This document shows positions 231-56,768 of a stretch of 64,000 nt of DNA, piece by piece (the first letter of the stretch is position 1; every line of letters starts with the position of its first letter). Made by a program: the position numbers and the translations under genes. Source of the stretch: a plasmid. The stretch lies in the sequence record NZ_CP090008.1. One strand, written 5' to 3'. The notes under the pieces were generated by a model, which was not told the origin of the DNA, did not search any database, and saw only the letters and a list, made by a program, of their open reading frames with translations.

Positions 231-254
231 ATAGGGAACACCTCACAACTCTTC

Positions 255-290
255 TTATCTCTATTCTTATCTCTATTCTTATCTCTATTA
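255..290. repeat. Tandem repeat 3 x 12 bp (TTATCTCTATTC)
   Basis: Direct reading of sequence. Confidence 0.85.
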
Positions 291-542: not shown

Positions 543-773
543 ATGAATGGGATAGGTTATATACTTAGGAGGTTACGGAAAGAAAAAGGGATTACACAGA
601 GAGTTATCTATACAAATCTTTGTAGTCGAAAGCAACTTTCTAGGATAGAAAATAATACATCTTTCCCATCAGTATATCTTTTATATCATATTTGCCAAAG
701 ATTAGAAGTGACAATAGATGAAGTTATCAAATTAACATTAGAAGGAGAAAGTAATGGCAATCAGCACAAGTGA
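543..773 (+). CDS. Small XRE-family helix-turn-helix transcriptional regulator (76 aa), first gene of cluster
   Basis: HTH_XRE signature (LRRLRKEKGITQRV...LSRIENN); overlaps start of next gene. Confidence 0.6.
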   Translation: MNGIGYILRRLRKEKGITQRVIYTNLCSRKQLSRIENNTSFPSVYLLYHICQRLEVTIDEVIKLTLEGESNGNQHK

Positions 774-1800
774 ATTAAAGTATGAATTACCGGTCGAATT
801 AGCTGCTCGACAACCTATAGAACTGACATCGAGTAGAAGGGATGGAACTAGATTAATAGTAGGTTTTAAAAACTCTCAAAAAATCATTGATGATGTTTTT
901 ACAAATTTTACTAACTATATAAATTCAGGAGACTTACTTATTTTAAATAATAGTAAAACAATTTCACCAATTTTTTATGCATATTCCGATAAATATGGAG
1001 AGGTGAAATTTCATATTAAGACTAAGACTGATTTAGGATATGTATCATATATCAGAATTAGAGAAGATTTAAAAGATAAAATTATTGGTGAGAACTTTAT
1101 TGTAACTGATGAAATAGAAGTATCTGTAAATAAACGAACTGAAGGCGATGAATTTTTGTGTAGTTTTAATTGTTCTGAAGAGGATTTGTATAACTATTTA
1201 TTAATTAATGGTGAGGCAGTGAAATCAATTTATACAAAGAAAAAATGGTCAATTGATTATTATCAAAATGAAGTTGCAAATAAATTAGGATCTTTTGAAA
1301 ACCCAGCAGCGAGTCGGCACTTTACTAATAAAATGTTAAATATTTTACGTGAAAAAGGGGTAAGAATCGCGTATATTACTTTAAATTGTGCTTCGGTTGA
1401 TACAAAAATTTTTGAGGATATTATAGAGAAACATGTTGTTTTTAAGGAATACTATGAGATCCCCGAAGAAACAGTAAGATTAATTCAAGAAACAAAATTA
1501 AACGGTAATAAGGTGTTTGCGGTTGGAACTACAGTTATTAGGACTTTAGAAAGCTGTAATTATGATAATTTCAGAATTACTTCCCCTTTAAAAAATTATA
1601 CTGATTTATATATTCATCCTGGACATAATTTTAAAGTAACAGATGCTTTAATTACAAATTTTCATGGATCAATGACTAGTAGACTTGCTCTTTCTGCAGC
1701 TGCAATTGGTGTGGATAATATTATGAATTTATACAAACATGCAATCGAAGAAAAATATTTATTTTATGAGTTTGGGGATGCGAATTTATTATTCATGTAG
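754..1800 (+). CDS. QueA-family protein (S-adenosylmethionine:tRNA ribosyltransferase-isomerase homolog), divergent, in non-tRNA-modification context
   Basis: Alignable along full length to QueA: YELPxELIA, GDLLxxNN, GNKVFAVGTTVIRTLES (cf. VGTTSVRSLES), ALITNFH, EEKYxFxxxGDA. Confidence 0.8.
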   Translation: MAISTSELKYELPVELAARQPIELTSSRRDGTRLIVGFKNSQKIIDDVFTNFTNYINSGDLLILNNSKTISPIFYAYSDKYGEVKFHIKTKTDLGYVSYIRIREDLKDKIIGENFIVTDEIEVSVNKRTEGDEFLCSFNCSEEDLYNYLLINGEAVKSIYTKKKWSIDYYQNEVANKLGSFENPAASRHFTNKMLNILREKGVRIAYITLNCASVDTKIFEDIIEKHVVFKEYYEIPEETVRLIQETKLNGNKVFAVGTTVIRTLESCNYDNFRITSPLKNYTDLYIHPGHNFKVTDALITNFHGSMTSRLALSAAAIGVDNIMNLYKHAIEEKYLFYEFGDANLLFM

Positions 1801-1831
1801 TTTAGTAAATAACTAGAAAGGGGGTGATGAT

Positions 1832-1906
1832 ATGAAGAAGTTGACATTGAAAGAACTGGTTGATAAAAATAATGATTTGCTCTCACGTTGCACAATCAAT
1901 AAATAA
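1832..1906 (+). CDS. Unannotated 24-aa peptide MKKLTLKELVDKNNDLLSRCTINK (candidate precursor/substrate peptide)
   Basis: ATG 8 nt after strong SD (GGGGGTGA); sits between QueA-like and PqqD-like genes; followed by hairpin 1925-1951. Confidence 0.5.
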   Translation: MKKLTLKELVDKNNDLLSRCTINK

Positions 1907-1972
1907 TTAACCACGGAAAAATCCAATGAAGAATGATATTATTTCTTCATTGGAGTTTATTTTGGAGGGCTT

Positions 1973-2239
1973 ATGCTTTATAAAGTTAATCGAGACGTAG
2001 AAATAACAGAAGAAAATGGATATCAAGTTATTCATAGATATTCAGATGATTCGTATTTTTCCTTAGAAAATGATACTTTGTTTATTTTATTGAGTTATAA
2101 TGGTTTAAATAAATTGCAAGATATTGCAAAAAGCTTTGCAAAATATAAAGGAATTTCTAATAACAAAGCTTTAGAATACGTAGAACAAATCCAAAAATAT
2201 TTAGTTTCAGAAGGAATAATTGTCATAGATGAGAACTAA
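1973..2239 (+). CDS. PqqD-like small protein (RiPP recognition element-type peptide chaperone), 88 aa
   Basis: Size and pattern typical of PqqD family (…LNKLQDIAKSF…YVEQIQKYLVSEGIIV); SD GGAGGG upstream. Confidence 0.55.
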   Translation: MLYKVNRDVEITEENGYQVIHRYSDDSYFSLENDTLFILLSYNGLNKLQDIAKSFAKYKGISNNKALEYVEQIQKYLVSEGIIVIDEN

Positions 2240-3095
2240 ATCTAAGTTATTTAATAATATAGCAGAAGATAATATAGACTCCCTTTATGTACAATTGTGT
2301 AATTTAATATATAAAAATGGTAAAGTTGTAATTTCGAGAGGCATGGAGGTAAAAGAATTAATTGGGGTTAACTTAATTTTAACTAATCCCAAAAGACGCT
2401 TTTTAGAAAATGCCAACAGAAAATTAAAACTATACTACGCTATTGGAGAATTCATATGGTATATGAGGGGGAGTAATAGTTTAGAGGAAATTCAGTATTA
2501 TGCCCCTAGCATGTCACAGTTTTCTGATGATGGTTCTATTCTTCAAGGAGCTTATGGACCTAAGATTGTAACTCAAATCGATAAATTGATTACACTGCTA
2601 AGACATGACAAGGGGACTCGTAGGGCAGTTTTACCTATTTATTCTGCGAGTGAATTAGGTAAAGATAGTAAAGATATCCCATGCACACTCACATTAGAGT
2701 TTTTGATTCGAGCTAATAAGCTTCATCTCATTGTCAATATGAGATCAAACGACATATTTTTGGGGCTTCCGTATGATATTTTTTCTTTCACAATGATTCA
2801 GGAATACATTGCAAATAAGATAGGTCTAAATTTAGGATATTATTATCATAATATCGGAAGCTTACATGTCTATAAGAAACATTTTGATAGAATAAAAGAA
2901 ATATCAACTATGAATATACATAAAACATCAGAATTCAATAACTCAAATTTAATCTTTAAAAATTTAAGTGATTTGTTAAACATTGAAAAATCAATTAGAA
3001 ACGGAAGTCCATACAATATGAGCAAGGAATTACTTAATAATTCGGATTTCAATAGAATAAAGATTGAACTAGAGAAATATAAGGATAGTAGGTGA
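2229..3095 (+). CDS. Thymidylate synthase (ThyA)/dNMP hydroxymethylase-family enzyme with catalytic Cys intact
   Basis: IPCTLTLEF…NMRSNDIFLGLPYDIFSFTMIQEYIA…SLHVY aligns to ThyA PCH…[20 protein letters not shown]…HLY. Confidence 0.8.
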   Translation: MRTKSKLFNNIAEDNIDSLYVQLCNLIYKNGKVVISRGMEVKELIGVNLILTNPKRRFLENANRKLKLYYAIGEFIWYMRGSNSLEEIQYYAPSMSQFSDDGSILQGAYGPKIVTQIDKLITLLRHDKGTRRAVLPIYSASELGKDSKDIPCTLTLEFLIRANKLHLIVNMRSNDIFLGLPYDIFSFTMIQEYIANKIGLNLGYYYHNIGSLHVYKKHFDRIKEISTMNIHKTSEFNNSNLIFKNLSDLLNIEKSIRNGSPYNMSKELLNNSDFNRIKIELEKYKDSR

Positions 3096-3098
3096 GAA

Positions 3099-3683
3099 AT
3101 GTCTATCGGAAAACTAATCTATATATGTGGAATTGATGGTTCTGGGAAAACAACATTAGCCAAGAATCTTTCTAATCATTTTGGTGATAAATCAATATTT
3201 TTGCCATTAAATAATTCAAAAAGATTCATTAATGAAATTGATAGTTTCTGTAAAGAGTATAATACAGACAGGTGGAGTATATTTTCAGAATATTTTAGGG
3301 GAAATATTTGGGCGTTAGAGCTAGTTTATTTTTGTGAAAATATTTTAAAACCCGCTCTAAAAAAGTACGAATATGTATTCATCGATAGATATTATATATG
3401 TAATGCTATATATTCTAATTTATTAGTCACTAATAAGTTGGTTAATAGACTGCATGAATTACTGATTAAACCAGACATGGTTTTTTATATCAATATTAAT
3501 CCAGAGATCGCTTTTGAAAGAATTTTAAAAAGGAATGAGCAAAAAACGCCGAAAGAAAGTTTGGACAATTTAAAATTAGCTTCTGATTTATATTCAAGAT
3601 ATCTTGAAGATAAAAGTTATTATGAATTAGACGGAGAGAAGTCAGAGAATCAAATTTTAAAGTCTGTATTACAAATTATTTAG
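3099..3683 (+). CDS. Thymidylate/dNMP kinase-like P-loop kinase
   Basis: Walker A GIDGSGKTT; DRY-type motif FIDRYYICNAIYS as in Tmk. Confidence 0.7.
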   Translation: MSIGKLIYICGIDGSGKTTLAKNLSNHFGDKSIFLPLNNSKRFINEIDSFCKEYNTDRWSIFSEYFRGNIWALELVYFCENILKPALKKYEYVFIDRYYICNAIYSNLLVTNKLVNRLHELLIKPDMVFYININPEIAFERILKRNEQKTPKESLDNLKLASDLYSRYLEDKSYYELDGEKSENQILKSVLQII

Positions 3684-3699
3684 AATTTAGGATTAAGAT

Positions 3700-4689
3700 A
3701 TGAAATTTGAAACAGTACTAGATTTTTATATATACTATTTGGAAATCCTTCTGAAAAGGGAAAAAAATCATACTAAAGTTGTCCCATTTTCGGAGATAGC
3801 TAATAAAGTCGAGGTTTTCAACAATAGTATTGAGATTGTTCAAGGAACTCATAGTAATATGCTATTTAGTAGATCTGAATTTAATTATAATGTAGTGCAT
3901 ATGCTATATTCTTTGAGTGGGAGAACAGATTCATATATATTAAAAAAATATAAAAGTTCATATTGGCGATATTCGAATGAGGGATTTTATGTCAATACAA
4001 TTGGGGAGCGGTTATATACTTTATATGGTAATCAAATTAAACGTTGTGTAAATTTTTTAAAAGAAAATATTTATACGTCAGATGCCGTTTGTTTTATGAA
4101 ATCTTTTGAAAATGAAAATATTGAATGTACTCTAAATCTTCATTTTTATTATAGAGATAATCGATTAAATTTGGAGTTATCATATAAAGGTTCTAGTTTA
4201 TTAGAGTATACTAACTCCGATCTATTTATTTATTCTTCTTTACTTTCATTAATGAGCCATTGGTTAGATGTGGAACCTGGAAGTTTATTTTTAAAATGTC
4301 ACTCGATTTTTATTTCAGAAAATGATCTAGAAAGAGCTAAGAAACTATTAGAAATTGGTAAATCGTTGAGAAATATTGGTATTTCAATGAATCATAGGTT
4401 TTCATCCAGTATTGAAACTTATCGTTCAGAATTTTCTGAAGCTATCAATAGAATAATTGCTTGGGATACTGTTGATATTACTCAGAGAGTTTCTGAGGAA
4501 TTAGAGTATATAAAAAAGTATTTTACTCCATATATTCAAGACTTGTTACTTATTCTTTTAGCGGATAGATTTCATCAAACTGATAGTGATTATAAAATAG
4601 TATTGAGTCAGCTCTCAGATAGGTCAATTGGGAAATTTAAGGAAACAATTGATAAAATACAATTTAATAAATTATTAGAGGTAATTTAA
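3700..4689 (+). CDS. Divergent ThyA-fold paralog (possible hydroxymethylase/methyltransferase or non-catalytic partner)
   Basis: IECTLNLHFYYRDNRLNLELSYKGSSLLEYTNSDLFIYSSLLSL resembles ThyA core (PCH…QRSxDxxLGxPFNIASY) but lacks the R-S-x-D phosphate motif. Confidence 0.4.
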   Translation: MKFETVLDFYIYYLEILLKREKNHTKVVPFSEIANKVEVFNNSIEIVQGTHSNMLFSRSEFNYNVVHMLYSLSGRTDSYILKKYKSSYWRYSNEGFYVNTIGERLYTLYGNQIKRCVNFLKENIYTSDAVCFMKSFENENIECTLNLHFYYRDNRLNLELSYKGSSLLEYTNSDLFIYSSLLSLMSHWLDVEPGSLFLKCHSIFISENDLERAKKLLEIGKSLRNIGISMNHRFSSSIETYRSEFSEAINRIIAWDTVDITQRVSEELEYIKKYFTPYIQDLLLILLADRFHQTDSDYKIVLSQLSDRSIGKFKETIDKIQFNKLLEVI

Positions 4690-4691
4690 AT

Positions 4692-4952
4692 TTGATAATT
4701 AAAAAGAGTCTTGCTGCTATACAACGTTCAGTATCAGGAAATGAATTTTTGTTAAATTTACTTACTGATAGGACTTTTCTCCTTAATGAAGTTTCTCTCT
4801 ATATTTGGAGTAATCTTGGAGAATGTAGTACTGAGGAAATAGCTGCAAATTTATCTAAAATGTATAATGAAAAAACCGAGATAATTCAAAATGATGTAGA
4901 TGAAGTTATTAATATTTTACAGGAAGAAGGGTTAATTGAAATTCTGAATTAA
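4692..4952 (+). CDS. Second PqqD-like small protein (RRE-type), 86 aa
   Basis: FLLNEVSLYIWSNLGECSTEEIAANL…DVDEVINILQEEGLIE is a textbook PqqD-family pattern. Confidence 0.65.
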   Translation: MIIKKSLAAIQRSVSGNEFLLNLLTDRTFLLNEVSLYIWSNLGECSTEEIAANLSKMYNEKTEIIQNDVDEVINILQEEGLIEILN

Positions 4953-4970
4953 GAGAGGTGGAGGATATTA

Positions 4971-5657
4971 ATGGCTGAAATTATTTATAGTATGATTGCT
5001 AATGAGATTTCAGAGCAATTGTCAGAGGATAATATTGTAATTTGGAAATCTGAGATGGATGGACTGGGGACCTCATTATCTGATATCGATGCATATTGTA
5101 TCTGCAAGGAAGAAAAAGTAATAAAAAGCTTTGTATATGAAGGGACACCGGTTGATATTGAATATGTGACTTCGGAAAGGCTAAAAGCTAAAATTAATAA
5201 AATTTATCAATACACTAATCATGGTGATATTTATAAAGGATTAGATGAAGATTTGAAATTATTTTACAGATTACAAAGAGGAGAGAAATCAGCTAAATTT
5301 TCATTGATTGGAGTTGAAGTTCCCACACTTGAGGAAATTTCTAAGATTGCAGCACAATATTATTATGAATTATTTTTAGGTCTGTATGAAGATGCTTATA
5401 AAATGTACCATGGGAAAAATAAATTAGATTCTTTTGTCCTTTCCCTAGAGACATTACAAATGTCTATTGCAACTTATTTAGCTAGGGTAGGGAAACCACA
5501 ATTTAAGAAAAAATGGCTATTTAAATATTTTAATATAGTAGCTAACAATTCCCTATATAAAGATTTAATTACACAATTAGAATCAACACAGGAATATGAT
5601 TTAATGGAATTCACAGAGAGTATACTAGTCAATTCAAAAAAGCTTCTAGAAATTTAG
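4971..5657 (+). CDS. Pol-beta superfamily nucleotidyltransferase (LinB/ANT-like)
   Basis: hG[GS]…DhDh motif: MDGLGTSLSDIDAYCI; helical C-terminal domain. Confidence 0.65.
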   Translation: MAEIIYSMIANEISEQLSEDNIVIWKSEMDGLGTSLSDIDAYCICKEEKVIKSFVYEGTPVDIEYVTSERLKAKINKIYQYTNHGDIYKGLDEDLKLFYRLQRGEKSAKFSLIGVEVPTLEEISKIAAQYYYELFLGLYEDAYKMYHGKNKLDSFVLSLETLQMSIATYLARVGKPQFKKKWLFKYFNIVANNSLYKDLITQLESTQEYDLMEFTESILVNSKKLLEI

Positions 5658-5679
5658 TATATTGAAAGGAGGTGAGATT

Positions 5680-5742
5680 ATGGTCTATAAAAAACCTATT
5701 GTTGAAGATATTAAATTAAGTGCCTCTGCATTACTTGTATAA
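5680..5742 (+). CDS. Unannotated 20-aa peptide MVYKKPIVEDIKLSASALLV (second candidate substrate/precursor peptide)
   Basis: Perfect SD AGGAGGTGA 7 nt upstream of ATG; followed by 12-bp perfect inverted repeat 5764-5775/5820-5831 plus T-run. Confidence 0.45.
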   Translation: MVYKKPIVEDIKLSASALLV

Positions 5743-5763
5743 TATCTTAGTATAAGTCGGAGA

Positions 5764-5831
5764 GTTGAACAGAATAATTATGTAGTTAATATGACTAACA
5801 GGAAGTATTACTACAAAAAATTCTGTTCAAC
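5764..5831 (+). terminator. Stem-loop (12-bp perfect arms GTTGAACAGAAT/ATTCTGTTCAAC) followed by T-rich tract; likely leaky terminator/attenuator after peptide gene
   Basis: Direct reading. Confidence 0.5.
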
Positions 5832-5857
5832 TTTCCATTTTTTATAGAGTAATAAAA

Positions 5858-6664
5858 ATGAGCAAAATTAGGTATATCATAATAAAGATACTATTACATC
5901 AATTTTACGGAATCAAAAATATAAAATTAATAAATTGTGTTAAAAATATGAATAAAGTTTATATTTTTGAAGATATCAACAAAAAGGTCAAAATGGTTTT
6001 AAAAGTAGAATCTGAAAGAAGAATTAATTCGATCAAGTACCAACATATATTTTCCAATTATGGGATATCGCCAAAAATAATTAAAACTAGAACAGGAAGA
6101 CAGTATATAAAGATTTATAGATTGGTAATATTTGTACAAGAGTATGTAACATCTAGTAAAAGAAAGGTCACTTCAACAGAGATTGTGGGATTTTTAAAAT
6201 ATTTTTACGGAAAAATGGATGAAATAAGAGAATATTTACCCGAAGTTTTGACTACTTATCCATTATATAAGCAAGGCGCATTAAGTAAATGGTTTTATGT
6301 AGTCCATGGTGATTTACGTCCACAAAATATTATCATTACCAGGGATAGTTTTAGCGTGATTGATTTTGAGTATTTAAGTCTAGGAATTCGAGAAACTGAA
6401 ATTCTCAAGTTAATTATAATAATTTGTAAATATCAAAGTAATTTGATTGAATCGCTATATTCTAAATTCTTAGAATCAGACGTAATAGAAATGCATATAG
6501 AGGAGGCGATAAGGGTTCTTTTGTATGATCTTCTTAAATCAAATTTTCCTGAAAAGGTCAAGAATAATATTCCAAAGAATTATTTTTTAGAAATAACTTC
6601 TGAAAGGGAGGCATTAATAAACTTTTGCCATACATATTTAAAAAGAAAGGAATCCCAAAAATGA
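5858..6664 (+). CDS. APH/choline-kinase-fold kinase (aminoglycoside phosphotransferase-like); true start may be internal (ATG 5948)
   Basis: Catalytic loop HGDLRPQNIII and IDFEY (DFE/DFG-like) motifs. Confidence 0.65.
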   Translation: MSKIRYIIIKILLHQFYGIKNIKLINCVKNMNKVYIFEDINKKVKMVLKVESERRINSIKYQHIFSNYGISPKIIKTRTGRQYIKIYRLVIFVQEYVTSSKRKVTSTEIVGFLKYFYGKMDEIREYLPEVLTTYPLYKQGALSKWFYVVHGDLRPQNIIITRDSFSVIDFEYLSLGIRETEILKLIIIICKYQSNLIESLYSKFLESDVIEMHIEEAIRVLLYDLLKSNFPEKVKNNIPKNYFLEITSEREALINFCHTYLKRKESQK

Positions 6665-7710
6665 TTTCAACTGAGATTGAGAAAAAATATCTACTTACAA
6701 AAGAAGAATTTCTATCCTTTAGTAGAGATTTTTTTAAAAGTGCAAAAATTCAAGAACAAACTAATTATTATTTTGATAGTTTAGATTTTTCACTATTAAA
6801 GAGAGGAATGACTCTTAGAATTCGAGAAAAATATGATAAATATATTTTAACATTAAAGAAAAAGAAATCAGTCAAAATAATTGTAGAATCGGAAGAAATT
6901 AATTTCGTAATTACACCGCAAGACTTTCAAGAGGCAATCTTAACTGGAGAATTTCCCCAAAATGTAAAGAAAGAACTAGACTCATTAATTCCCGAAAAGA
7001 AAATTTTTTATCTAGGTTTTCTAAAAACTAAAAGATATGTAATCGAAAAAAATTCTTTGATATATTGTTTAGATAAAAATAATTATTTTGGAAAGGAGGA
7101 TTTTGAATTAGAAATTGAAGGAACAGAGAAAGGACTAAAAGAAATTGAAATTGATATTTCCAAGAGCAAATCTAATAATGTTGGAAAATATGCTAGATTT
7201 ATTGATGAATTATTGAAAGGAAACGGTAATTATCTGATTAAAACTCAAGTGTCTGCAATTATTCTTAATAAAAGTAGCGATAAAGTTTGTCTTATTAAGA
7301 AGGATATTCCAACCTCAAGTATACATAATATGTGGCTTCCACCCGGTGGACATATCGATTTTGGAGAAAATTTAATAGATGCTGTCAAAAGAGAGGTCTA
7401 TGAAGAGACAGGGTTAGAAGTTACGGTTTCAAAATTATCTAGCATTGTATCGTTTCATCAAAAAAAGGCAGAGCAAGCTATTTGTTTCTTTTATGTCGCA
7501 GAATCCCAAAATATTAATGAAATAAATGTCACTGAGCCAGGCATTGAATGCAGGTGGTTTAATTTAAAAGATATACTAAGTGGAGATGATATAAATATGA
7601 CATCCTATCATAAGCTTATAATATCCGACTTGCAAGATAACAGGATTTTATATTTGAATTTAAAAAAATCTGATAATCAATATAATATTGAAAATATAGT
7701 TCATATTTAA
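6661..7710 (+). CDS. CYTH (triphosphate tunnel) - Nudix hydrolase fusion protein
   Basis: N-term EIEKKYLL (ExExK CYTH signature); C-term Nudix box GGHIDFGENLIDAVKREVYEETGLEV. Confidence 0.7.
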   Translation: MISTEIEKKYLLTKEEFLSFSRDFFKSAKIQEQTNYYFDSLDFSLLKRGMTLRIREKYDKYILTLKKKKSVKIIVESEEINFVITPQDFQEAILTGEFPQNVKKELDSLIPEKKIFYLGFLKTKRYVIEKNSLIYCLDKNNYFGKEDFELEIEGTEKGLKEIEIDISKSKSNNVGKYARFIDELLKGNGNYLIKTQVSAIILNKSSDKVCLIKKDIPTSSIHNMWLPPGGHIDFGENLIDAVKREVYEETGLEVTVSKLSSIVSFHQKKAEQAICFFYVAESQNINEINVTEPGIECRWFNLKDILSGDDINMTSYHKLIISDLQDNRILYLNLKKSDNQYNIENIVHI

Positions 7711-7894
7711 AAGATTAAAACTAGTTATATATAAAATCTAGGTATAACTGTTCCACTGAATTCCATAGATATAATTAGCTTCTTAAATGTAGGGCTATTT
7801 TATAGCTTGAATATACAATATAAGTGCACAATAAAAACTCATAAGATTTTCTAGTAAAATAGAATTGAACGAACTAGTTACGAAAGGAAATCTT

Positions 7895-8881
7895 ATGAGC
7901 TACCATCATTTTACTATAGATGAACGTGAAAGCATTCTCGTTTACCGTACGCATGACCTAAATTTTTCTCAAATTGCTAAATCACTTCATCGTCATTAGT
8001 CTAGCAGTAGTGGTGAGTGGCAACGACATCTTAAAGAAGGAAGCTATTCTCCAAGTCATGCATAGGAATCTTATCATATGGCTAAATCACACTGTGGGCG
8101 GAAACGTATGCTTGAAATAGATCACAATTTAAGCAATACCGTCAAACATCTATTTCTCGATTACCAATGGTCTCCCGAAGAAATAGAAGGTCGGTTGCGA
8201 TTAGAGTATGGAAAAACTGTTATTAGTTATCAAACAATCTATAGAGCCATTTACAGAGGGCATTTTGATGATAACTCACTATCTCATGGTGCTCGTGGTG
8301 TCATTCGAAAGCTCCGTCATCGTGGTAAAACACGTCATACAAAAGGTTATGTCGAAAATAGAGGGAAAATCTCTATATCTCATACAATTCACGAAAGACT
8401 AGAAGATGCTAATAACCGAACTAGAATAGGAGATTGGGAAGCCGATACTGTTGCAGGTAAAACTAGAAAAGCTTGTTTAGTGACTCTAACTGACCGTTAT
8501 TCTCGTTTTCTAAAAATCCAGAAGGTAGCTGTCAAGAAAAGCAAGTTGGTAATAGAAGCTATGGTAAAAATGTTAGAGCCCTTGACGAAGCATACAATAA
8601 CTCCTGATAGAGGGAAAGAATTCACGTATCATCAGAAATTGAGCGATCAATTGAACATTGAAGTCTATTTTCCTGACCCTCATGCTCCATGGCAACGAGG
8701 AACCAATGAGAACACGAAAGGATTACTTTGAGAGTATTTTCCAAAGGGTAGTGATCTAACATTGGTTGATGATCAGACTATTCAGCTGTGGGAGAACAAA
8801 CTTAATAATAGGCCACGAAAATGTCTTAACTGGAAAACACCTTATGAAGTATTCTATGGGGAAAGTATGCACTTAATTTGA
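7895..8881 (+). pseudogene. IS30-family transposase, inactivated (two in-frame stops near N-terminus, frameshift near C-terminus)
   Basis: MSYHHFTIDERESILVYRTHDLNFSQIAKSLHRH* …; DDE core …GDWEADTV…; C-terminal continues in another frame to 8881. Confidence 0.75.
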
Positions 8882-8953
8882 CAATTCAAGAGTAAAATAA
8901 ATTTAGAAGACATATTTTTATTTGATTTAAGTTATTTGATTTAAGGAGGCGAA

Positions 8954-9745
8954 ATGCTACTAGCTGTAATAAGAAGAAACTGGCAGATGTATAAAAGATA
9001 TTTTCCAGTAACATTGTTTTTTAATAGGGGTTTGGATGCTGGTTTTACTCTATTAGGTTTGTGGTTAATAGCGAATTTTTTATTCGCAAATAACATTAAA
9101 GTTGGTAATGCTATAGAGTACTCAGATTACTTCAGTTATGCTGCAGTAGGATTGGTTTATTATAATGCATCAATTGCTATTCTGATGAATGTAGGGAGAG
9201 CATTAATAACAGAAGTTAGAGAAGGCACTCTTGAAAGTACATTAGTATCTCCTTTTAACATTGTCTATTATTACTTAGGAATCTTTTTAGAGCAGTTTGT
9301 AAGGACCTTTTTGGAATTTCTATTTTCTTATATAATTGCTATTTTGCTCGGTGCAGATTTACAACAAATTACATTACTGATTTTATTGCTTGGCTTCTTA
9401 TATGTTTCGATTTGCTCTTTTTCGATGGGGGTATTCCTATCAAATATAATGTTGTGGTTTAGGGATACATTCATTAGTCAAAATACAATTTTTCTGATAA
9501 TCTTCTTGGTCTCAGGCATTACCTTTCCAATAGAATTATTGCCAAAATTTTTAAGGGTGATTAGTAATTTTATACCGTTAACATATTCTATTAAGGCAAT
9601 AAGAACCTTATATTTGGAAACCCAGACGAGTATGATCAATCTTAGCTTTATACAAGGTTTACTACTTTCAATATTATACTTCTTGATAGGGATTCTGGTA
9701 TATAATAAGGTTGAGAAAAAAATTGTAAGTGATGTTTCATATTAA
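8954..9745 (+). CDS. ABC-2 type transporter permease
   Basis: 6-TM hydrophobic profile, 263 aa, translationally coupled to ATPase. Confidence 0.6.
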   Translation: MLLAVIRRNWQMYKRYFPVTLFFNRGLDAGFTLLGLWLIANFLFANNIKVGNAIEYSDYFSYAAVGLVYYNASIAILMNVGRALITEVREGTLESTLVSPFNIVYYYLGIFLEQFVRTFLEFLFSYIIAILLGADLQQITLLILLLGFLYVSICSFSMGVFLSNIMLWFRDTFISQNTIFLIIFLVSGITFPIELLPKFLRVISNFIPLTYSIKAIRTLYLETQTSMINLSFIQGLLLSILYFLIGILVYNKVEKKIVSDVSY

Positions 9746-10744
9746 GTGAAGGAGAGAAATAAAATGTATGAAGTATTCAATATTTCAAAAGATTATGTAA
9801 CAAAAAAGAGAATAGGATTGTTTAAACATAAAAAAGAAGTTAAAAAAGCTATACAAGATGTAAATTTATCAGTCCCTAGAGGTAAAATTATTGGTGTTTT
9901 AGGAGAAAATGGTGCAGGGAAAACAACTTTAATAAAGATGATGACAACACTTCTATCAAGTGATACTGGAAAAATTTTGATAGATGGAGTTGACATTAAT
10001 CAAAATGTAAAAAATACTCGAAAAAGGATCAACATCATTAGTGGAGGAGAAAAAAATCTCTATTGGAGATTGACTGCAGTTGAAAATTTACTCTATTTTG
10101 CTTCTCTGTACGGTCTTCCAAAGAAAGAGGCATTACCTAAGATAGATAATTTATTGAATGAATTAGGGCTTTGGGAAAGTAAGGATACTCCTGTAGAAAA
10201 ATTTTCAAAGGGAATGAAGCAACGCTTACAAATTGCTAAAGGACTAATCAATGATCCAGAATATTTATTTCTTGATGAACCTACACTAGGTCTAGATGTC
10301 AGTATTGCTTACGAGTTGAGAAAAAAATTAAAAGAGATAGCGGCTAAGCGGAATACAGGAATTTTGTTAACAACTCACTACATGGCTGAAGCAGATGAAT
10401 TATGTGATTATATTTATTTTTTAAAACATGGTAAAGTAATTGTGTCAGGTACCAAAACACAGGTTTTTGAACAATTACAGATGACACCAGAGCTTCATGT
10501 CATCCTTTCAGATAGGGATGATGAAAATTCTTCAAAGCTGGCTCAAGTTAGTCGTTTATTTCCATGTATAATTTTGGAAAAATTTGGTAGTAGTATATTG
10601 TTGAAATTCTCTCTTTCAGAATATAATGTGCAGGATATAATAAAAAGCCTATATAATAATCAAATTGAAATTAAGGAAATAAGATATAATGAGCCTACTC
10701 TTGAAAATGTTATTCTAAATTTAGGAGGAAAGAGCTTAAAATGA
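9746..10744 (+). CDS. ABC transporter ATP-binding protein
   Basis: Walker A GENGAGKTT, signature FSKGMKQRL, Walker B LFLDEPT. Confidence 0.85.
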   Translation: MKERNKMYEVFNISKDYVTKKRIGLFKHKKEVKKAIQDVNLSVPRGKIIGVLGENGAGKTTLIKMMTTLLSSDTGKILIDGVDINQNVKNTRKRINIISGGEKNLYWRLTAVENLLYFASLYGLPKKEALPKIDNLLNELGLWESKDTPVEKFSKGMKQRLQIAKGLINDPEYLFLDEPTLGLDVSIAYELRKKLKEIAAKRNTGILLTTHYMAEADELCDYIYFLKHGKVIVSGTKTQVFEQLQMTPELHVILSDRDDENSSKLAQVSRLFPCIILEKFGSSILLKFSLSEYNVQDIIKSLYNNQIEIKEIRYNEPTLENVILNLGGKSLK

Positions 10745-11535
10745 ATTCGATAATAGTTAGTACTTTTAAGAGTGAATTTAGAAGAACATTTTTAAATGAC
10801 AGTATTAATAAATTTTATTTTTTTTCAATGATACTTTGGCCAATTATTTCTCTAATTCAAATTTTTTACAATATGCAAGCCTTTCCAATTACGGATATAC
10901 AAATAGCATCTCTAAGATATGAAGACCAATTAATTTATTTTATATTTATTGGTTATTGTGTTTACATCATTTTTTCAAATGCTGTTCAGAGTGCATGGAG
11001 GCTTGGTGGAGAACGATATCAAGGAACTCTTAGTCAAATTTTTATTGCTCCAATTAAAAAAAATCTATGGCTTTATGCACGTACCTTATCACTTATTTTA
11101 AGTAATTCATGGTTTTTTATCACTATTTTTATTATTGGAAATTTTGTCTATTCTGATGCTTATGAATATATTCTTGCGTCCACTTTTATTTTAGTTGTTG
11201 CATCCTGGATTTGGGCAAGTTTCTTAGGTAGTATTTGTATCAGTTTGAGAGATGCAACGGTAGTTTATGTATTATTGGAGAGCTCTCAAAATACTTTTAG
11301 TGGTGCTAAAGTTCCATTATCAAAATCACCTCGATTAATAAAAGTTATAGGGAGTTTATTTCCCATTAGCTACACAATTATTTATCTAAGAGATATACTT
11401 CTTTATAAAGAGATTATAAGTATAAGTGCTATTTGGTGCTTATGCATAAATATCTTTGTTATTTTATTAACGAAGATAGTGTTAGAAGTTGGAGAAAGAC
11501 ACATGAAAAAAGTGGGCAGTTTTGATTTATTTTGA
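10741..11535 (+). CDS. ABC-2 type transporter permease (second)
   Basis: Multi-TM, overlaps ATPase stop (ATGA). Confidence 0.6.
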   Translation: MNSIIVSTFKSEFRRTFLNDSINKFYFFSMILWPIISLIQIFYNMQAFPITDIQIASLRYEDQLIYFIFIGYCVYIIFSNAVQSAWRLGGERYQGTLSQIFIAPIKKNLWLYARTLSLILSNSWFFITIFIIGNFVYSDAYEYILASTFILVVASWIWASFLGSICISLRDATVVYVLLESSQNTFSGAKVPLSKSPRLIKVIGSLFPISYTIIYLRDILLYKEIISISAIWCLCINIFVILLTKIVLEVGERHMKKVGSFDLF

Positions 11536-43175: not shown

Positions 43176-43946
43176 CTAACCACCATTTCGATTGGTTAAA
43201 TCTTTCAATCTTTCTTCCCCAGATTTAAGCATCTCTTTCTCAACTTGATTCCATTCTCCAAATAGTAAATCATGAAGAACGGTTGCTGCTGAAGTTGTAT
43301 TTTCTTTTGAATCATATACACAACTTCTATCTCGTTGATAAATTTGAATTCTTTCAAAGATAGATAGTTCTTCCAATTGTCGTGTATTATCAACTAGATG
43401 ATTTACAATGAAATCATGATGTTCTTTTGGAGTTGCGCGTGCTTGATTTGGATTGATAGCGTACAGTTCTTCGTATCGGATAAGGGTGCTTAGATAGGAC
43501 AATTCGGGCTTTGTTGCGATTATGGCTAATTGTACTTCATATCCCTTATTTTTCAAGAGTTGTGCCGTTTTCTTTGGAATATCAACTGTTCGTAGAGTTC
43601 CCTCTATCAAAAGATTGTATCCCAAACTACTCAATTTTGTTACTAAAGACTCTACCATTTTCCCTGCAAAATCTTTGGTGTATTCAACGCTATCTTTGCC
43701 ATATTCTTGCTGAAGTTCTAAATAGTGTGGATGCTGAGAGCGAAAACTATCGCCATCTATGATAACAATATTTCCTTGAAATTCTTTCTGTTTAATACGA
43801 TGAATTGTAGTCTTGCCAGCACCACTTTGCCCTCCAAGCAAAATCGCTATAGGTTGCTTACTGGACTTTTTTCCTCTTGTCAGAGAACGAAGATTCCGTG
43901 CTAAAGCATGTTTGAATTCGCTATCAGTATAATCTTGGATTTCCAT
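43176..43946 (-). CDS. pezT: Zeta/PezT toxin (UDP-GlcNAc kinase)
   Basis: GGQSGAGKTT Walker A, IIDGDSFRSQHPHY; near-identical in my recollection to pneumococcal PezT. Confidence 0.85.
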   Translation of the reverse strand: MEIQDYTDSEFKHALARNLRSLTRGKKSSKQPIAILLGGQSGAGKTTIHRIKQKEFQGNIVIIDGDSFRSQHPHYLELQQEYGKDSVEYTKDFAGKMVESLVTKLSSLGYNLLIEGTLRTVDIPKKTAQLLKNKGYEVQLAIIATKPELSYLSTLIRYEELYAINPNQARATPKEHHDFIVNHLVDNTRQLEELSIFERIQIYQRDRSCVYDSKENTTSAATVLHDLLFGEWNQVEKEMLKSGEERLKDLTNRNGG

Positions 43947-44422
43947 TAGGCTACCATCCGTTTTTCAGATATCTCTAACATGCGTTCAATTCCATCCAAA
44001 TAGCCGCTATATCTCTCTATTTCATCAAAAGTTTCTACTAAATAGATATTCGTATGAATCAAGTCAGATAGATCATCACTCATTAAAATCCAAGGATTAG
44101 ATTCTTCATCAATGCTAATTCCCTGTCTATCTTGATAACGATAGAGTCGAGATAGTAGATTAGCACCCCTTTCTTTCACAATTTCAATTTTTAAAGTCAA
44201 TTCATAATCTTCAACAGGATTGAGCATTTTGTCTTCTCCTACAATATCGACATAAGATACATTAAATTTCTGACAAATGATGTCTATTAATTCGGTTGAG
44301 ACTGAACTCGTTCCATTTTCATAACGACTCAGACTATTTCGTGAAATACCTACAATCCGTGCAAATTCGGGTTGTGTTAAGTCATGTGTTTTACGTAAGG
44401 ATTTTATGTTCTTTCCAATCAT
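43946..44422 (-). CDS. pezA: PezA antitoxin (HTH-XRE + epsilon-like domain), 158 aa
   Basis: N-terminal HTH; overlaps pezT start by 1 nt. Confidence 0.8.
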   Translation of the reverse strand: MIGKNIKSLRKTHDLTQPEFARIVGISRNSLSRYENGTSSVSTELIDIICQKFNVSYVDIVGEDKMLNPVEDYELTLKIEIVKERGANLLSRLYRYQDRQGISIDEESNPWILMSDDLSDLIHTNIYLVETFDEIERYSGYLDGIERMLEISEKRMVA

Positions 44423-47306: not shown

Positions 47307-49430
47307 TTAGTAATCCGTCTGATAAAGTTTTTTATACAAACCATTTTTCATATTCAATAGTTCTGTATGACTTCCTTGTTCTACAATTTCTCCTTTATCC
47401 ATTACAAAAATCTGGTTAGAATCGATAATGGTAGAAAGTCGATGTGCAATAACAATAATTGTAATATTTTGTTCTTTAAATTTCTGCATAATCTCTTTTT
47501 CATTAACATTATCTAGATAACTTGTGGCTTCATCTAAAAGTATTATTTTAGGTTTCTTAACTAGCGCTCTTGCTAAAATTATTCTCTGACGTTGCCCTCC
47601 TGACAGATTCATTCCCATTTCTGAAACTAAAGTATTATACCCCATGGGCATTTCCATAATTTCATCATGGATATTAACTAACTTACAAATTTTTGTCATT
47701 TCTTCCTCTGAGACTGAGATATCTCCAGCAATATTCTCATGTATGGTTTTATTAAATAAAGTCATGTCTTGTGGGACAATGCCAATTTGTTGACGAAGAT
47801 ACTGTTTATCCAACAAATTATAATCTAAGTCATCAAATAAAATACTACCTGAGGATGCTGGAAATAAACCTATCAATAATTTGGAAAGGGTACTTTTACC
47901 TGATCCAGAAGAGCCAACAATTGCTACCTTTTCCCCTTTCTTTATTTCAATAGACACATTAGAGAGTACTTTTTTACTATCTCTAGTATATGAAAATGAA
48001 ACATTTTTAAGTGCGATTTCCCCATTTAAGTCGTGTTTCACTACACCATTTATTTCAGTTTCTTCATCTAAAATCTCTAAAATCCGAGATAAAAATGTTT
48101 TGCTATTGTAGAATGCTACAATCGTATCAAAAATACTATTAATCTTACCAAATAATAGAGATGACAAAGAATATACTGCAAAAATTCCACCTAACTTATT
48201 ACCTAAATGATTATCTGGCAACAACATAATAAATAATAGGATAAATGGAGATATAAAAGTGATAATTGAAAATAACGAATTAACAACACTTGAGAACAAT
48301 TCACTGGCTCTATATCTATAAAGATACTTATCTAAATAACCTTTCCATTGTTTAAACGTTCGAACTTCAAATCCTTCCATTTTTATTCCCATCATAGAAT
48401 AAATCATTTCGATTTGTTTATTTTGGAGATCATTCTGAGCTATCACAAAAGATTTACTTTTTTGTTCCAAATTCTTTCTAGTCAATAGAAGCAACAACAA
48501 ATTTATTACCACTAACATAAGAGCGATAATCGCCACGAAAAAATCAATATATAGAAAGTAAAACAAAATACAAATTACAAAACCAATATCTAATATTCCT
48601 AGTACAACCTGATTTGTAAATAATTGCCGAATTCTACCCAAACCATTTATAGAATAAATTAAATCACCACTACTTCTAGTAGAGAAAAATTTATATGGTA
48701 ATTGAAATAAACGACCAATTACACTATTATTCAGTCTTTTATCTATATCGTTTGTCAGATTAATAGAAAGATATCTCTGACCGAGCATTATAATAAAGTA
48801 TAGTAATGTAAAAATAATAAAATTGAGCGCTAAAATTGCTGGATTAAACTGATTACCACCTGTTGCTTGATTTAATAGCTGTTGCGTCCATATAGGTAGA
48901 ATAAAGCTAACCGCATAACTTACAAAAGTTAGAAATAACAGAGGTACAAAATATTGCCAAGATTGCCAAAGTTGCGCATAAATCTCTCCGTAATTCTCTT
49001 TTGATTTTTGTTTTATTACTCTATCACTGCTAGAAATACTAATTAAAAATTCTGAGAAACCGGCTGAGAACTCATTTAAATCATATCTTAATTTTCCGAG
49101 TTCAGGATCAATTACCCAAACAAATTTAGAAGTTACTTTTTCTACAACAACAAAATGCTTACTCTCCCACAATGCAATGGCTGGAACTTTTATCTGTTTA
49201 TATACATCTGGTCTATCTTTTGGAAAACGGAATGATTTCACTTTAAATCCCATATTTTCTAACAGTTCAATTAAATTTTGAAAACTAGTTCCATCCCTCC
49301 CTGTTTCTTTTAGATTTCTCAGATCTTTAACGGAAATTTCGTGATTATAAAAACTCGACACCATCGCAACACAGCATAATCCACACTCTGTTTTTTGGTG
49401 TTGTTCGATAAACGGGATGTTTCTTTTCAT
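47307..49430 (-). CDS. lanT: Bacteriocin/lanthipeptide ABC exporter with N-terminal C39 peptidase domain (LanT)
   Basis: QKTECGLCC (C39 catalytic Cys), 6 TM, Walker A GSSGSGKST, LSGGQRQR. Confidence 0.85.
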   Translation of the reverse strand: MKRNIPFIEQHQKTECGLCCVAMVSSFYNHEISVKDLRNLKETGRDGTSFQNLIELLENMGFKVKSFRFPKDRPDVYKQIKVPAIALWESKHFVVVEKVTSKFVWVIDPELGKLRYDLNEFSAGFSEFLISISSSDRVIKQKSKENYGEIYAQLWQSWQYFVPLLFLTFVSYAVSFILPIWTQQLLNQATGGNQFNPAILALNFIIFTLLYFIIMLGQRYLSINLTNDIDKRLNNSVIGRLFQLPYKFFSTRSSGDLIYSINGLGRIRQLFTNQVVLGILDIGFVICILFYFLYIDFFVAIIALMLVVINLLLLLLTRKNLEQKSKSFVIAQNDLQNKQIEMIYSMMGIKMEGFEVRTFKQWKGYLDKYLYRYRASELFSSVVNSLFSIITFISPFILLFIMLLPDNHLGNKLGGIFAVYSLSSLLFGKINSIFDTIVAFYNSKTFLSRILEILDEETEINGVVKHDLNGEIALKNVSFSYTRDSKKVLSNVSIEIKKGEKVAIVGSSGSGKSTLSKLLIGLFPASSGSILFDDLDYNLLDKQYLRQQIGIVPQDMTLFNKTIHENIAGDISVSEEEMTKICKLVNIHDEIMEMPMGYNTLVSEMGMNLSGGQRQRIILARALVKKPKIILLDEATSYLDNVNEKEIMQKFKEQNITIIVIAHRLSTIIDSNQIFVMDKGEIVEQGSHTELLNMKNGLYKKLYQTDY

Positions 49431-49442
49431 ATCTAACCCCCA

Positions 49443-52397: not shown

Positions 52398-52508
52398 AAT
52401 GATTTCCTCCTTAATTACTAATAGATTATCAAATTTACCGTTTATTAGAATGAGTAATATGTGCAATTTTTGTAAATAAATTAAAAAAGCTGCATCTTCT
52501 GCAACTTT

Positions 52509-53105
52509 TTAATCTGGTGGAAAATAGCCCAACTGCTCAGCGATATGAATCGCCTCCTGCCTGTTAGTCACTCCAAATTTTGAAAAGATATTGGCCAAGT
52601 GATTGGAAACTGTACGTTTACTCACATCGACCTTGTCACAGACATCATCAATGGTCAAGCCATTTCTAACCAATTCTAGTATCTCGATTTCTCGTGGTGT
52701 TAGCACCTCTACCATCACTTCATCTGAAAAGACCTTACCACCTAGATAAATCTTTTCCAGTTTTTTCACCAACTCATCTGGGTTCATGCTTTTATCCAGA
52801 AAACCATAAGCCCCCATAGCTTTAGCTCGGTGTTCATACATCTTTTTGCTGTATCCCGTCAAAATTACAACCTTACTAGAGCAACCATTGTCGATAATCT
52901 CTTGTGCCAAGGTCAGCCCATCATCTTGATACAGACTCGTCAGGTTGATGTCAATCAAAATAATGTCGTAGTCATTAAAAGCAATCTTCGAAATAGTCGA
53001 AAAATTATCCACTAACTGGACCTTTTTAATGTTTTCCGATAACTCTAAAATCATCTTGATACTTTGGCTAAATAATTTATGATCATCAATTAACAAAATT
53101 TTCAT
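52509..53105 (-). CDS. lanR: LuxR/NarL-family response regulator
   Basis: REC domain MKILLIDDH…; C-terminal HTH LuxR (ILELVRNGLTIDDVCDKVDVSKRTVSNH). Confidence 0.8.
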   Translation of the reverse strand: MKILLIDDHKLFSQSIKMILELSENIKKVQLVDNFSTISKIAFNDYDIILIDINLTSLYQDDGLTLAQEIIDNGCSSKVVILTGYSKKMYEHRAKAMGAYGFLDKSMNPDELVKKLEKIYLGGKVFSDEVMVEVLTPREIEILELVRNGLTIDDVCDKVDVSKRTVSNHLANIFSKFGVTNRQEAIHIAEQLGYFPPD

Positions 53106-54660: not shown

Positions 54661-54740
54661 AAGTATCCACTTCCTGAACTACTTTAATATCAGTATAACA
54701 CAATACCAGAATTGTCGGATAGGCAACTCTGGTATTTGAC

Positions 54741-56756: not shown

Positions 56757-56768
56757 ACTCTCCTCCTC

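Follow-up and report, generated by a model that had tools for sequence, protein, structure and literature searches.

A QueA-like protein in a candidate ribosomal peptide cluster on a streptococcal megaplasmid

Introduction

The plasmid DNA analysed here (sequence record NZ_CP090008.1; a stretch of 64,000 nucleotides, called the window) carries at 543-11535 a gene cluster that combines a QueA-like protein with a small peptide gene, two PqqD-like proteins, enzymes of nucleotide type and an ABC exporter. A sequence-only reading of this DNA had proposed that the QueA-like protein was recruited outside tRNA-queuosine metabolism, and left open whether its substrate was a nucleotide or a peptide. We therefore examined the protein, its relatives and their gene neighbourhoods.

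Canonical QueA uses S-adenosylmethionine (SAM) as ribosyl donor in what is among the most unusual reactions of this cofactor: adenine and methionine are released and an epoxy-dihydroxycyclopentyl group (C5H6O3, +114.03 Da) is made. The attacking group is a primary amine on a methylene attached to the base, namely the aminomethyl group of preQ1. To our knowledge, preQ1 in tRNA is the only QueA substrate that has been described.

Results

The gene cluster

Between 543 and 7710, genes follow one another closely on a single strand (Table 1). The first encodes a helix-turn-helix (HTH) regulator, whose 3' end overlaps the start of the QueA-like gene by 20 nt and which is kept upstream of the QueA paralog in the loci of Streptococcus mitis and Gemella. 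About 250 bp upstream of the HTH gene lies a perfect 12-bp tandem repeat, TTCTTATCTCTA (3.2 copies, window 252-289), which could be an operator or iteron-like site. The QueA-like gene is followed by a 24-aa open reading frame (ORF) and a PqqD-like gene, so its description as embedded between an HTH regulator and a peptide/PqqD pair was borne out.

The 24-aa ORF is preceded by a strong ribosome-binding site, and a hairpin with a U-rich tail comes directly after its stop. The hairpin was calculated at -19.8 kcal/mol (z -3.9), and none of 200 shuffled sequences was as stable. A strong hairpin was also found 3' of the precursor ORF in all eight other loci examined (9/9 with the window); a hairpin behind the structural gene is a feature known from bacteriocin genes. 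The PqqD-like protein encoded next belongs to the group of RiPP recognition elements (RREs; RiPPs are peptides made by the ribosome and modified after translation). This protein, RRE1, has no Pfam match of its own, and phmmer linked it to its Geobacillus ortholog (1e-07), which carries PF05402, and to an RRE of the type B loci described below (1.5e-04).

Table 1. Features of the window, with the evidence for each assignment (positions are those of the window)
Feature	Position	Strand	Evidence and remarks
Xre/Cro-type HTH regulator	543-773	+	Pfam HTH_19 7.8e-09, HTH_3 1.1e-07
QueA-like protein, proposed class-defining peptide maturase	754-1800	+	348 aa; Pfam PF02547
Precursor peptide gene (putative)	1832-1906	+	24 aa, MKKLTLKELVDKNNDLLSRCTINK; preceded by GAAAGGGGGTGA; sole Cys at position 20
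12-bp hairpin and U-rich tail, attenuator/terminator-like	1922-1963	+	directly after precursor stop
RRE1, PqqD-like peptide-recognition protein	1973-2239	+	no own Pfam match; phmmer links
TS1, thymidylate-synthase-fold enzyme, MilA-like	2229-3095	+	PDB MilA 5b6d 3.9e-37
dTMP-kinase-like P-loop nucleotide kinase	3099-3683	+	Thymidylate_kin 2.4e-22; TIGR00041 81.3 bits, cut-off 83.25 missed
TS2, divergent thymidylate-synthase-fold protein	3700-4689	+	Pfam Thymidylat_synt 2e-05
RRE2, second PqqD-family protein	4692-4952	+	Pfam PqqD PF05402 2.4e-11
ANT-like (Pol-beta fold) nucleotidyltransferase (candidate), paired with RRE2	4971-5657	+	228 aa; motif GLGTSLSDIDAY
APH/choline-kinase-fold phosphotransferase	5858-6664	+	Pfam APH 1.3e-05
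CYTH-NUDIX fusion, triphosphate-tunnel and nucleotide pyrophosphohydrolase	6625-7710 (start perhaps 6661)	+	CYTH 3.1e-21, NUDIX 1.9e-15
Frameshifted transposase remnant	7865-8731 (ORFs 7865-7999, 8078-8731)	+	IS30-like by inspection
ABC-2 exporter	8954-11535	+	permease 8954-9745, ATPase 9746-10744, third ORF 10741-11535
PezAT-like zeta toxin/epsilon antitoxin	43176-44422	-	Zeta_toxin 2.7e-62, Epsilon_antitox 9.2e-33
C39-peptidase ABC transporter, lanthipeptide locus	47307-49430	-	
LanM, class II lanthipeptide locus	49443-52466	-	DUF4135 and LANC_like
LuxR-type response regulator and histidine kinase, lanthipeptide locus	52509-54660	-	
FtsX/ABC immunity-type genes, lanthipeptide locus	54741-57506	-	

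Sequence and fold of the QueA-like protein

The Pfam family PF02547 (Queuosine_synth) spans the whole ORF (residues 6-346, model positions 2-322 of 322, E 1.4e-73), and among structures of known sequence the protein matched the QueAs 1vky (3.2e-51), 1yy3 (6.6e-45) and 1wdi (1.2e-36). These alignments agree with the earlier description of a full-length alignable QueA-family protein, and all five motifs cited for it are present: YELPVEL (10-16), GDLLILNN (59-66), GTTVIRTLES (258-267), ALITNFH (298-304) and EEKYLF (332-337). Structure prediction had been named as a check. An AlphaFold2 model made from 20 members of the paralog clade had a mean predicted local distance difference test score (pLDDT) of 88.9, and a Foldseek search of the PDB with it gave significant matches solely to QueA (1vky, 1wdi and 1yy3, E 2e-28 to 2e-24). 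By its full-length PF02547 match and two-domain fold, the protein is thus a member of the QueA family, and it shares fold, length and domain order with the three canonical structures at 30-38% sequence identity. The middle region, which had been called insertion-rich, turned out to have small indels only, with 348 aa in the whole protein compared to 347 and 346 in crystallised QueAs. The middle region corresponds to the beta-barrel domain (residues 70-150, approximately) and is the part of the protein with the lowest conservation.

A profile search of 1.84 billion representative proteins yielded 4,230 QueA-family representatives at E < 1e-30. Bit scores dropped from 546 to about 340 within about 17 entries and then reached the canonical plateau near 310, and the paralog clade is rare, with a few dozen members among these representatives. 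The closer relatives form a small group, at 76% and 39-45% identity to the window protein, that includes proteins of Geobacillus thermodenitrificans (on a plasmid), Brevibacillus panacihumi and Bacillus cereus; most QueAs do not exceed 38% identity. In a neighbour-joining tree, all 28 paralogs assigned by context or signature fell into one bipartition (bootstrap 188/200). Two further sequences joined this bipartition; P0120 is, judged by its sequence signature, encoded in the Acidimicrobiia type B locus L017. The clade signature is found in the window protein as YQN (170-172), GSFENPAASRHF (179-190) and FYEFGD (337-342).

When 34 paralogs were compared with 130 canonical representatives, taking as canonical those columns that are at least 95% conserved, we found that 29 of 36 canonical columns were retained in at least 90% of the paralogs, and the retained blocks include GTT..R..E, TNFH and FGD. 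Altogether 14 canonical-conserved positions were altered, seven of them among the 36 strongest columns. The changes A182E and S339E were present in 34/34 paralogs, L188R, T172N, V69T, P158S and M344T were near-invariant, and the canonical motifs PLPPYI and GTFRP were lost. The catalytic core of the paralogs therefore looks intact, with a defined set of positions remodelled, which is the pattern expected if the SAM chemistry were kept and the acceptor changed. Given the QueA fold and the 29 retained columns, SAM as ribosyl donor is the default expectation for the paralog. Charge and isoelectric point were considered as a proxy for lost tRNA binding and were uninformative, since canonical QueAs are just as acidic.

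The same changes could be read in another way: the paralog might bind SAM but run a different SAM-dependent reaction on a peptide, either by using another part of SAM or by ribosylation without isomerisation, in which case no epoxy-carbocycle would form. In its favour are the two new invariant glutamates, the two lost motifs and the other altered columns, and also that no ligand-bound structure locates the catalytic residues of QueA. However, the retention of most canonical columns, the GTT..R..E, TNFH and FGD blocks among them, argues against it, and the AlkZ-like genes in type B and C loci (see below) would suit an epoxide product. We consider a different reaction quite unlikely.

Distinction from housekeeping queA

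The window protein missed the cut-offs of the NCBIfam equivalog models for QueA, with 225.5 bits compared to 324 for NF001140 and 215.4 compared to 267.45 for TIGR00113. None of the other main ORFs of 100 aa or more in the 64 kb (nested ORFs skipped) showed a TGT or QueC/D/E/F/G domain in a Pfam scan, consistent with the earlier remark that no tgt, queF or queG lies nearby. The canonical context in Brevibacillus is ruvAB-queA-tgt-yajC, as seen in loci L026 and L027, and a queA-tgt context was present in none of the paralog loci examined.

The genome of B. panacihumi W25 (GCA_000503775.1) revealed that the two forms occur side by side. Its canonical protein (P0378, scaffold KI629782.1) adjoins tgt, and its paralog (P0008, scaffold KI629786.1), which is 38% identical to the canonical protein, lies in a type A cluster beside Tn7-like genes. 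A separate housekeeping queA, for which the sequence-only reading had proposed to look, thus coexists with the paralog in this one genome, where the paralog is not the only queA. S. mitis, in which some strains carry a cluster 76% identical to that of the window, has core queCDE genes (PMC6722419).

The paralog of the Geobacillus thermodenitrificans T12 plasmid pGeo12a (NZ_CP020031.1, 28609-29643; L022) is named 'tRNA preQ1(34) S-adenosylmethionine ribosyltransferase-isomerase QueA' in RefSeq by the annotation pipeline PGAP, with gene ontology terms for tRNA modification. The adjacent 51-aa precursor ORF with three cores is unannotated in RefSeq. The name would fit a housekeeping queA that was picked up by a mobile element and still modifies tRNA, as would the QueA fold and the sharing of most conserved residues. 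We regard this as extremely unlikely for a protein that scores below the equivalog cut-offs and belongs to a distinct clade with fixed signature changes, nearly always has a linked RRE and precursor, is never found beside tgt, coexists with canonical queA-tgt in W25 and is missing from seven backbone-sharing streptococcal megaplasmids in PLSDB. Together with a megaplasmid that lacks tgt and que genes in the window, these data support recruitment outside tRNA-queuosine metabolism and, as far as sequence comparison can tell, the view that the QueA-like protein is not a housekeeping queA product.

Relatives in three architectures

Further loci were obtained from contig look-ups and a scan of species-representative genomes and were annotated with our own script. 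A PqqD-type gene stands immediately after the QueA-like gene in 16 of 17 informative loci, spread over four phyla and three architectures. This adjacency was recorded in the window, L001, L002, L006, L008, L009, L011-L013 (S. mitis) and L014 (Gemella), and also in L007, L015-L018, L020, L021 and L025.

Type A comprises the window, S. mitis, a Gemella metagenome-assembled genome (MAG), Geobacillus pGeo12a, Brevibacillus, B. cereus and two metagenomic lineages. Its gene order is QueA-like, precursor, PqqD, thymidylate synthase (TS), APH, TS, (NUDIX) and dTMP-kinase-like, followed by (weak UDG-like, for uracil-DNA glycosylase), PqqD, nucleotidyltransferase-like, (CPBP), CYTH and ABC. Some type A clusters additionally hold an ornithine/diaminopimelate-decarboxylase-like gene, that of Brevibacillus also a dCMP-deaminase-like gene, and the Geobacillus cluster carries a CPBP-type protein. 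Type B was found in Eubacterium, Ca. Stoquefichus, Glycomyces, Micromonosporaceae, Acidimicrobiia, Acetobacteraceae and one metagenomic lineage, with the order (TldD/PmbA), QueA-like, PqqD, precursor and a GT4 glycosyltransferase related to MshA/BshA, then a PIG-L deacetylase related to BshB1, ABC, radical SAM and AlkZ-like. Type C is represented by L025, which lies on a mobile element in a 4.3-Mb chromosome and reads PqqD, precursor, QueA-like, PqqD, unknown, AlkZ-like, FAD oxidoreductase, MFS and phosphopantetheinyl transferase. Thymidylate-synthase-fold and nucleotide-kinase genes are absent from types B and C.

In 15 of the 16 loci that have the QueA-like/PqqD pair, this pair is accompanied by a short ORF with a strong ribosome-binding site; the truncated B. 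cereus locus L008 yielded no precursor ORF. The ortholog in S. mitis and Gemella is MKKLTLKELVNKASDLLACCNATK. Precursors of type B, type C and Bacillales type A have the leader motif Y-x-[KTCQ]-P-x-L in common, examples being KYSKPELFKISL, YERPEFTRVEL, VYVKPVLMDV and YTTPKLLIVG; the Y-x-x-P-x-L type of leader present in most lineages is akin to lasso-peptide leaders. All precursor cores contain [A/S/K/R]-C with an invariant Cys, in the form GLA[LM][AS]C in type B, AFSC in type C and LLSRC and LLACC in streptococci, and the Geobacillus/Brevibacillus core F[SNA]KCR occurs in three repeats (for example FSKCRSD/FAKCRAD/FSKCRG). This Cys is the only universal nucleophile of the precursors, and Lys is not conserved. 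Two hallmarks of RiPP pathways are accordingly present: a precursor with leader and core (the 24-aa ORF, with homologous, similarly placed Cys-containing ORFs in 15 loci) and a PqqD-like RRE tied to the modifying enzyme (RRE2 by PF05402, RRE1 by its orthologs).

Clusters of known type were also considered. Pfam and NCBIfam searches of the cluster proteins gave no B2 transglutaminase-like protease or Asn-synthetase-like cyclase of lasso peptides, and no MccB-type ThiF/E1-like match was found among ten cluster proteins. Lasso and microcin C types were rejected because these defining enzymes are absent; the PqqD proteins alone gave weak, below-cut-off matches to lasso PqqD models.

A search for known defence systems with PADLOC left the core proteins unmatched and returned generic matches only, for the kinase (PDC-M51B, 2.7e-14) and the NUDIX protein (PDC-S07, 6.7e-11). 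These weak matches, the mobile-element setting and the presence of nucleotide-modifying and -hydrolysing enzymes would agree with an intracellular nucleotide-based anti-phage defence or toxin system in which the small ORF is incidental. Such a system is very unlikely in our view. None of the QueA-like, TS-like and PqqD proteins is matched by PADLOC, the position, ribosome-binding site, leader motif and Cys of the small ORFs are conserved across phyla, and two RREs, a dedicated ABC exporter and a CPBP-type protein accompany them.

AlkZ-like genes (PF06224) were observed in types B and C, at 15230-16267 in L007, 10325-11362 in L016 and 10490-11617 in L025, and also in L015 and L021. In biosynthetic gene clusters such genes are described as marking epoxide genotoxins and as encoding a self-resistance DNA glycosylase (PMC9040887). 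Their recurrence hints that the epoxide is retained in type B and C products.

Other features of these loci were noted as well. GT4, PIG-L and radical SAM genes accompany the QueA-like/RRE/precursor genes in the type B loci L007, L015, L016 and L020, which recalls the first steps of mycothiol and bacillithiol synthesis; this set also resembles the HpnI/HpnK/HpnJ trio of hopanoid cyclitol ether. In the Acetobacteraceae MAG locus L021 (9767-12373), a PqqD-like gene and a 28-aa precursor ORF lie between a tandem pair of QueA-like genes. The Bacillales type A loci encode an extra protein of 228-235 aa (L002, 15500-16186; L006, 15484-16191; L008, 7553-8239), which in each of the three matched the uracil-DNA glycosylase superfamily weakly and under the cut-off (E 9e-4 to 0.03) and has no counterpart in the window. 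Split genes were seen for the QueA-like protein (556-1408) and TS2 (3513-4498) in the Gemella MAG locus L014 and for the APH-like kinase in the S. mitis locus L011 (11136-11956); these are either decaying copies or assembly errors.

Accessory enzymes of the window cluster

The window cluster is of type A. TS1 matched the cytidylate hydroxymethylase MilA far better (3.9e-37) than thymidylate synthases (about 1e-19). Based on the residue roles reported for MilA-type enzymes, including the positions that set deoxyribose preference (PMC5175136), TS1 holds equivalents of Glu68, Cys155, His216 and Tyr218 and has an Asp at the cytosine-specifying position, with Arg and Ser at the deoxyribose-preference positions, where MilA has Lys133 and Ala176. 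TS2 has a degenerate active site, in which the streptococcal forms have only the Cys and Asp equivalents left, without those of Glu, Arg-Arg, Arg, His and Tyr, and a search of PDB sequences gave no match to it.

The 228-aa protein encoded after RRE2 contains a G-x-G-T-S...D-I-D motif, and Polbeta and NTP_transf_2 matches of its orthologs were sub-threshold. A sequence search of the PDB gave nothing useful. The protein database search found three close homologs only, and the AlphaFold2 model, made from this shallow alignment, had a pLDDT of 72. Its best Foldseek match was the nucleotidyltransferase-like protein 3c18 (3.5e-04), followed by the kanamycin nucleotidyltransferase ANT(4'), HalB, AAD(9) and LinB, suggesting, by weak but consistent similarity, an ANT-like (aminoglycoside-nucleotidyltransferase-like) enzyme. 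PF01636 is present in the APH-fold orthologs of other type A loci. The CYTH and NUDIX domains, fused in the window, are encoded by two genes each time in Geobacillus and Brevibacillus; in L009, a faint MazG-like match (PF12643) takes their place.

A transposase remnant splits the CYTH-NUDIX gene from the exporter genes; in the S. mitis loci, which are without it, the CYTH-NUDIX gene is followed directly by the ABC genes. When the exporter was compared with the Geobacillus cluster by phmmer, the permease (6.1e-16) and ATPase (4.3e-69) were matched. The third ORF had no match there and could, by position only, be a second permease, a place it shares with the second permease of S. mitis.

This set of enzymes raises an alternative, in which the QueA-like enzyme works on a nucleobase or nucleotide intermediate, for example 5-aminomethyl-cytosine derived from the MilA-like product, and the RRE and peptide serve as scaffold or carrier. 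The MilA-like hydroxymethylase, the kinases and the nucleotidyltransferase of type A would fit, as would the decarboxylase-like gene of some type A clusters and the dCMP-deaminase-like gene of Brevibacillus. In addition, canonical QueA uses a primary amine on a base-attached methylene, and aminomethyl-cytosine would be a pyrimidine analogue of the preQ1 aminomethyl group. However, this explanation fits type A but not types B and C, because the latter keep the QueA-like/RRE/precursor trio without TS-fold or nucleotide-kinase genes; the peptide with its invariant Cys is the sole element found in every architecture. A nucleotide substrate is therefore unlikely, and the comparative data point to the peptide among the nucleotide and peptide substrates that had been left open.

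The host replicon

The window backbone from 8 to 56 kb is 92-98% identical to megaplasmids of Streptococcus salivarius (CP015284, CP018188, MN480762 and others). At megablast level the cluster is absent from all PLSDB plasmids and only its flanks match, so that PLSDB offers no annotated cluster nearly identical to it. A class II lanthipeptide locus on the minus strand of the same megaplasmid (47307-57506) looks complete. Since the backbone is of S. salivarius type and bears this locus, the QueA-like gene is among the cargo of a bacteriocin-bearing megaplasmid. The window also holds a zeta/epsilon pair, probably a plasmid-maintenance module, and genes for an antigen I/II adhesin and a Y-family polymerase.

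Discussion

Collectively, we consider it likely that 543-11535 is a RiPP-type cluster carried as cargo by an S. salivarius-type megaplasmid, and that the QueA-like protein is its maturase rather than a tRNA enzyme. The comparisons suggest that the QueA paralog acts on a peptide in place of tRNA, and the best reading is a new pathway of RiPP type, with a class-defining maturase drawn from a family hitherto tied only to tRNA. QueA chemistry on a peptide would be new biochemistry.

The pathway may be pictured as follows. RRE1 would bind the leader of the 24-aa precursor and present the precursor to the QueA-like enzyme, a role that we infer from the QueA-like/RRE adjacency in 16 of 17 informative loci. 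The enzyme would convert the ribosyl moiety of SAM into an epoxy-dihydroxycyclopentyl group (+114.03 Da) on a nucleophile of the core peptide, freeing adenine and methionine; use of SAM is most likely retained because the QueA catalytic core is kept. As acceptor we favour the thiol of the invariant Cys, the alternative being an alpha-amine bared by leader cleavage. In type A, TS1 and the dTMP-kinase-like enzyme might produce an activated 5-hydroxymethyl-(deoxy)cytidine nucleotide, which RRE2 and the ANT-like nucleotidyltransferase would then join to a hydroxyl of the modified peptide. The CYTH-NUDIX protein would clear surplus modified nucleotide and the ABC-2 transporter would export the peptide-nucleotide product. 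Types B and C would use the same QueA-like/RRE/precursor core with other tailoring genes, in type B the glycosyltransferase, the PIG-L deacetylase and the radical SAM protein. In its most specific form, an S-linked epoxy-dihydroxycyclopentyl group would be installed on the invariant Cys under RRE guidance and would define a new RiPP class, with an O-nucleotidylylated hybrid as the window product and a DNA-alkylating epoxide, countered by AlkZ-like proteins, in types B and C. This combination is offered tentatively and is, taken as a whole, rather doubtful.

Several observations weigh against the peptide-maturase reading. Locus L024, the sole exception among the 17 informative loci, has no RRE beside the paralog, and the streptococcal leaders are without the Y-x-x-P motif. 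Neither net charge nor isoelectric point separates the paralogs from canonical QueAs, which are equally acidic. None of the QueA structures matched in the PDB is ligand-bound, so that the clade substitutions cannot be mapped to the active site, and both the acceptor atom and the reaction type are inferred. The nucleotidyltransferase assignment draws on a model of pLDDT 72 with Foldseek E-values of 3.5e-04 to 1e-02. Finally, with the insertion sequence remnant lying before the exporter genes, the window copy may be poorly expressed or its export uncoupled.

The proposed pathway has parallels in known systems. RRE-dependent RiPPs, such as those of PqqD/PqqE and of the lasso B1 protein, likewise have a discrete PqqD protein, a short precursor made of leader and core, and a dedicated exporter; they differ in the partner enzyme, which here has the QueA fold and is not a radical SAM protein, YcaO, protease or cyclase. 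Microcin C-type 'Trojan horse' antibiotics are peptide-nucleotides, and a Bacillus variant with carboxymethyl-cytidine uses CmoA/CmoB-like homologs of tRNA-modification enzymes. The likeness thus extends to a ribosomal peptide, a modified cytidine nucleotide and the recruitment of tRNA-modification homologs, whereas the candidate coupling enzyme of the window is an ANT-like Pol-beta-fold protein with its own RRE, not MccB, and the precursors, which are longer, contain a conserved Cys. With the CMP 5-hydroxymethylases MilA and BcmA (mildiomycin, bacimethrin) and the dCMP hydroxymethylase of phage T4, TS1 shares the catalytic Cys, Glu, His and Tyr and the cytosine-specifying Asp, but it occurs in a peptide cluster where another, degenerate protein of TS fold accompanies it.

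Relatives of types B and C share an AlkZ-like gene with epoxide genotoxin clusters such as those of azinomycin B, hedamycin and trioxacarcin. The canonical QueA product is itself an epoxide, the kind of warhead that these glycosylases guard against (PMC9040887). The window cluster, being of type A, differs in having no AlkZ-like gene, and the known AlkZ-associated clusters differ in yielding polyketide or non-ribosomal products, not ribosomal peptides. Our search, which included RRE-mining papers and had most subscription-journal papers outside it, found no publication that describes a QueA-like enzyme as part of a peptide cluster.

For annotation, the label of housekeeping queA on a paralog, as in the one annotated record checked (pGeo12a), can mislead the reconstruction of queuosine pathways. 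For the family, monophyletic QueA paralogs wired to RREs and precursors would carry QueA chemistry over to peptides. If the proposed pathway is correct, the S-linked epoxy-dihydroxycyclopentyl group would be a new post-translational modification, and the window product would be a peptide-carbocycle-nucleotide hybrid antibiotic with a 5-hydroxymethyl-(deoxy)cytidine nucleotide on the carbocycle or a neighbouring hydroxyl. It would also mean a new RiPP class that comes in three or more tailoring variants, a new marker for genome mining, and new scaffolds for antibiotics or genotoxins in oral streptococci, Bacillales, Clostridia, Actinomycetota and Acetobacteraceae.

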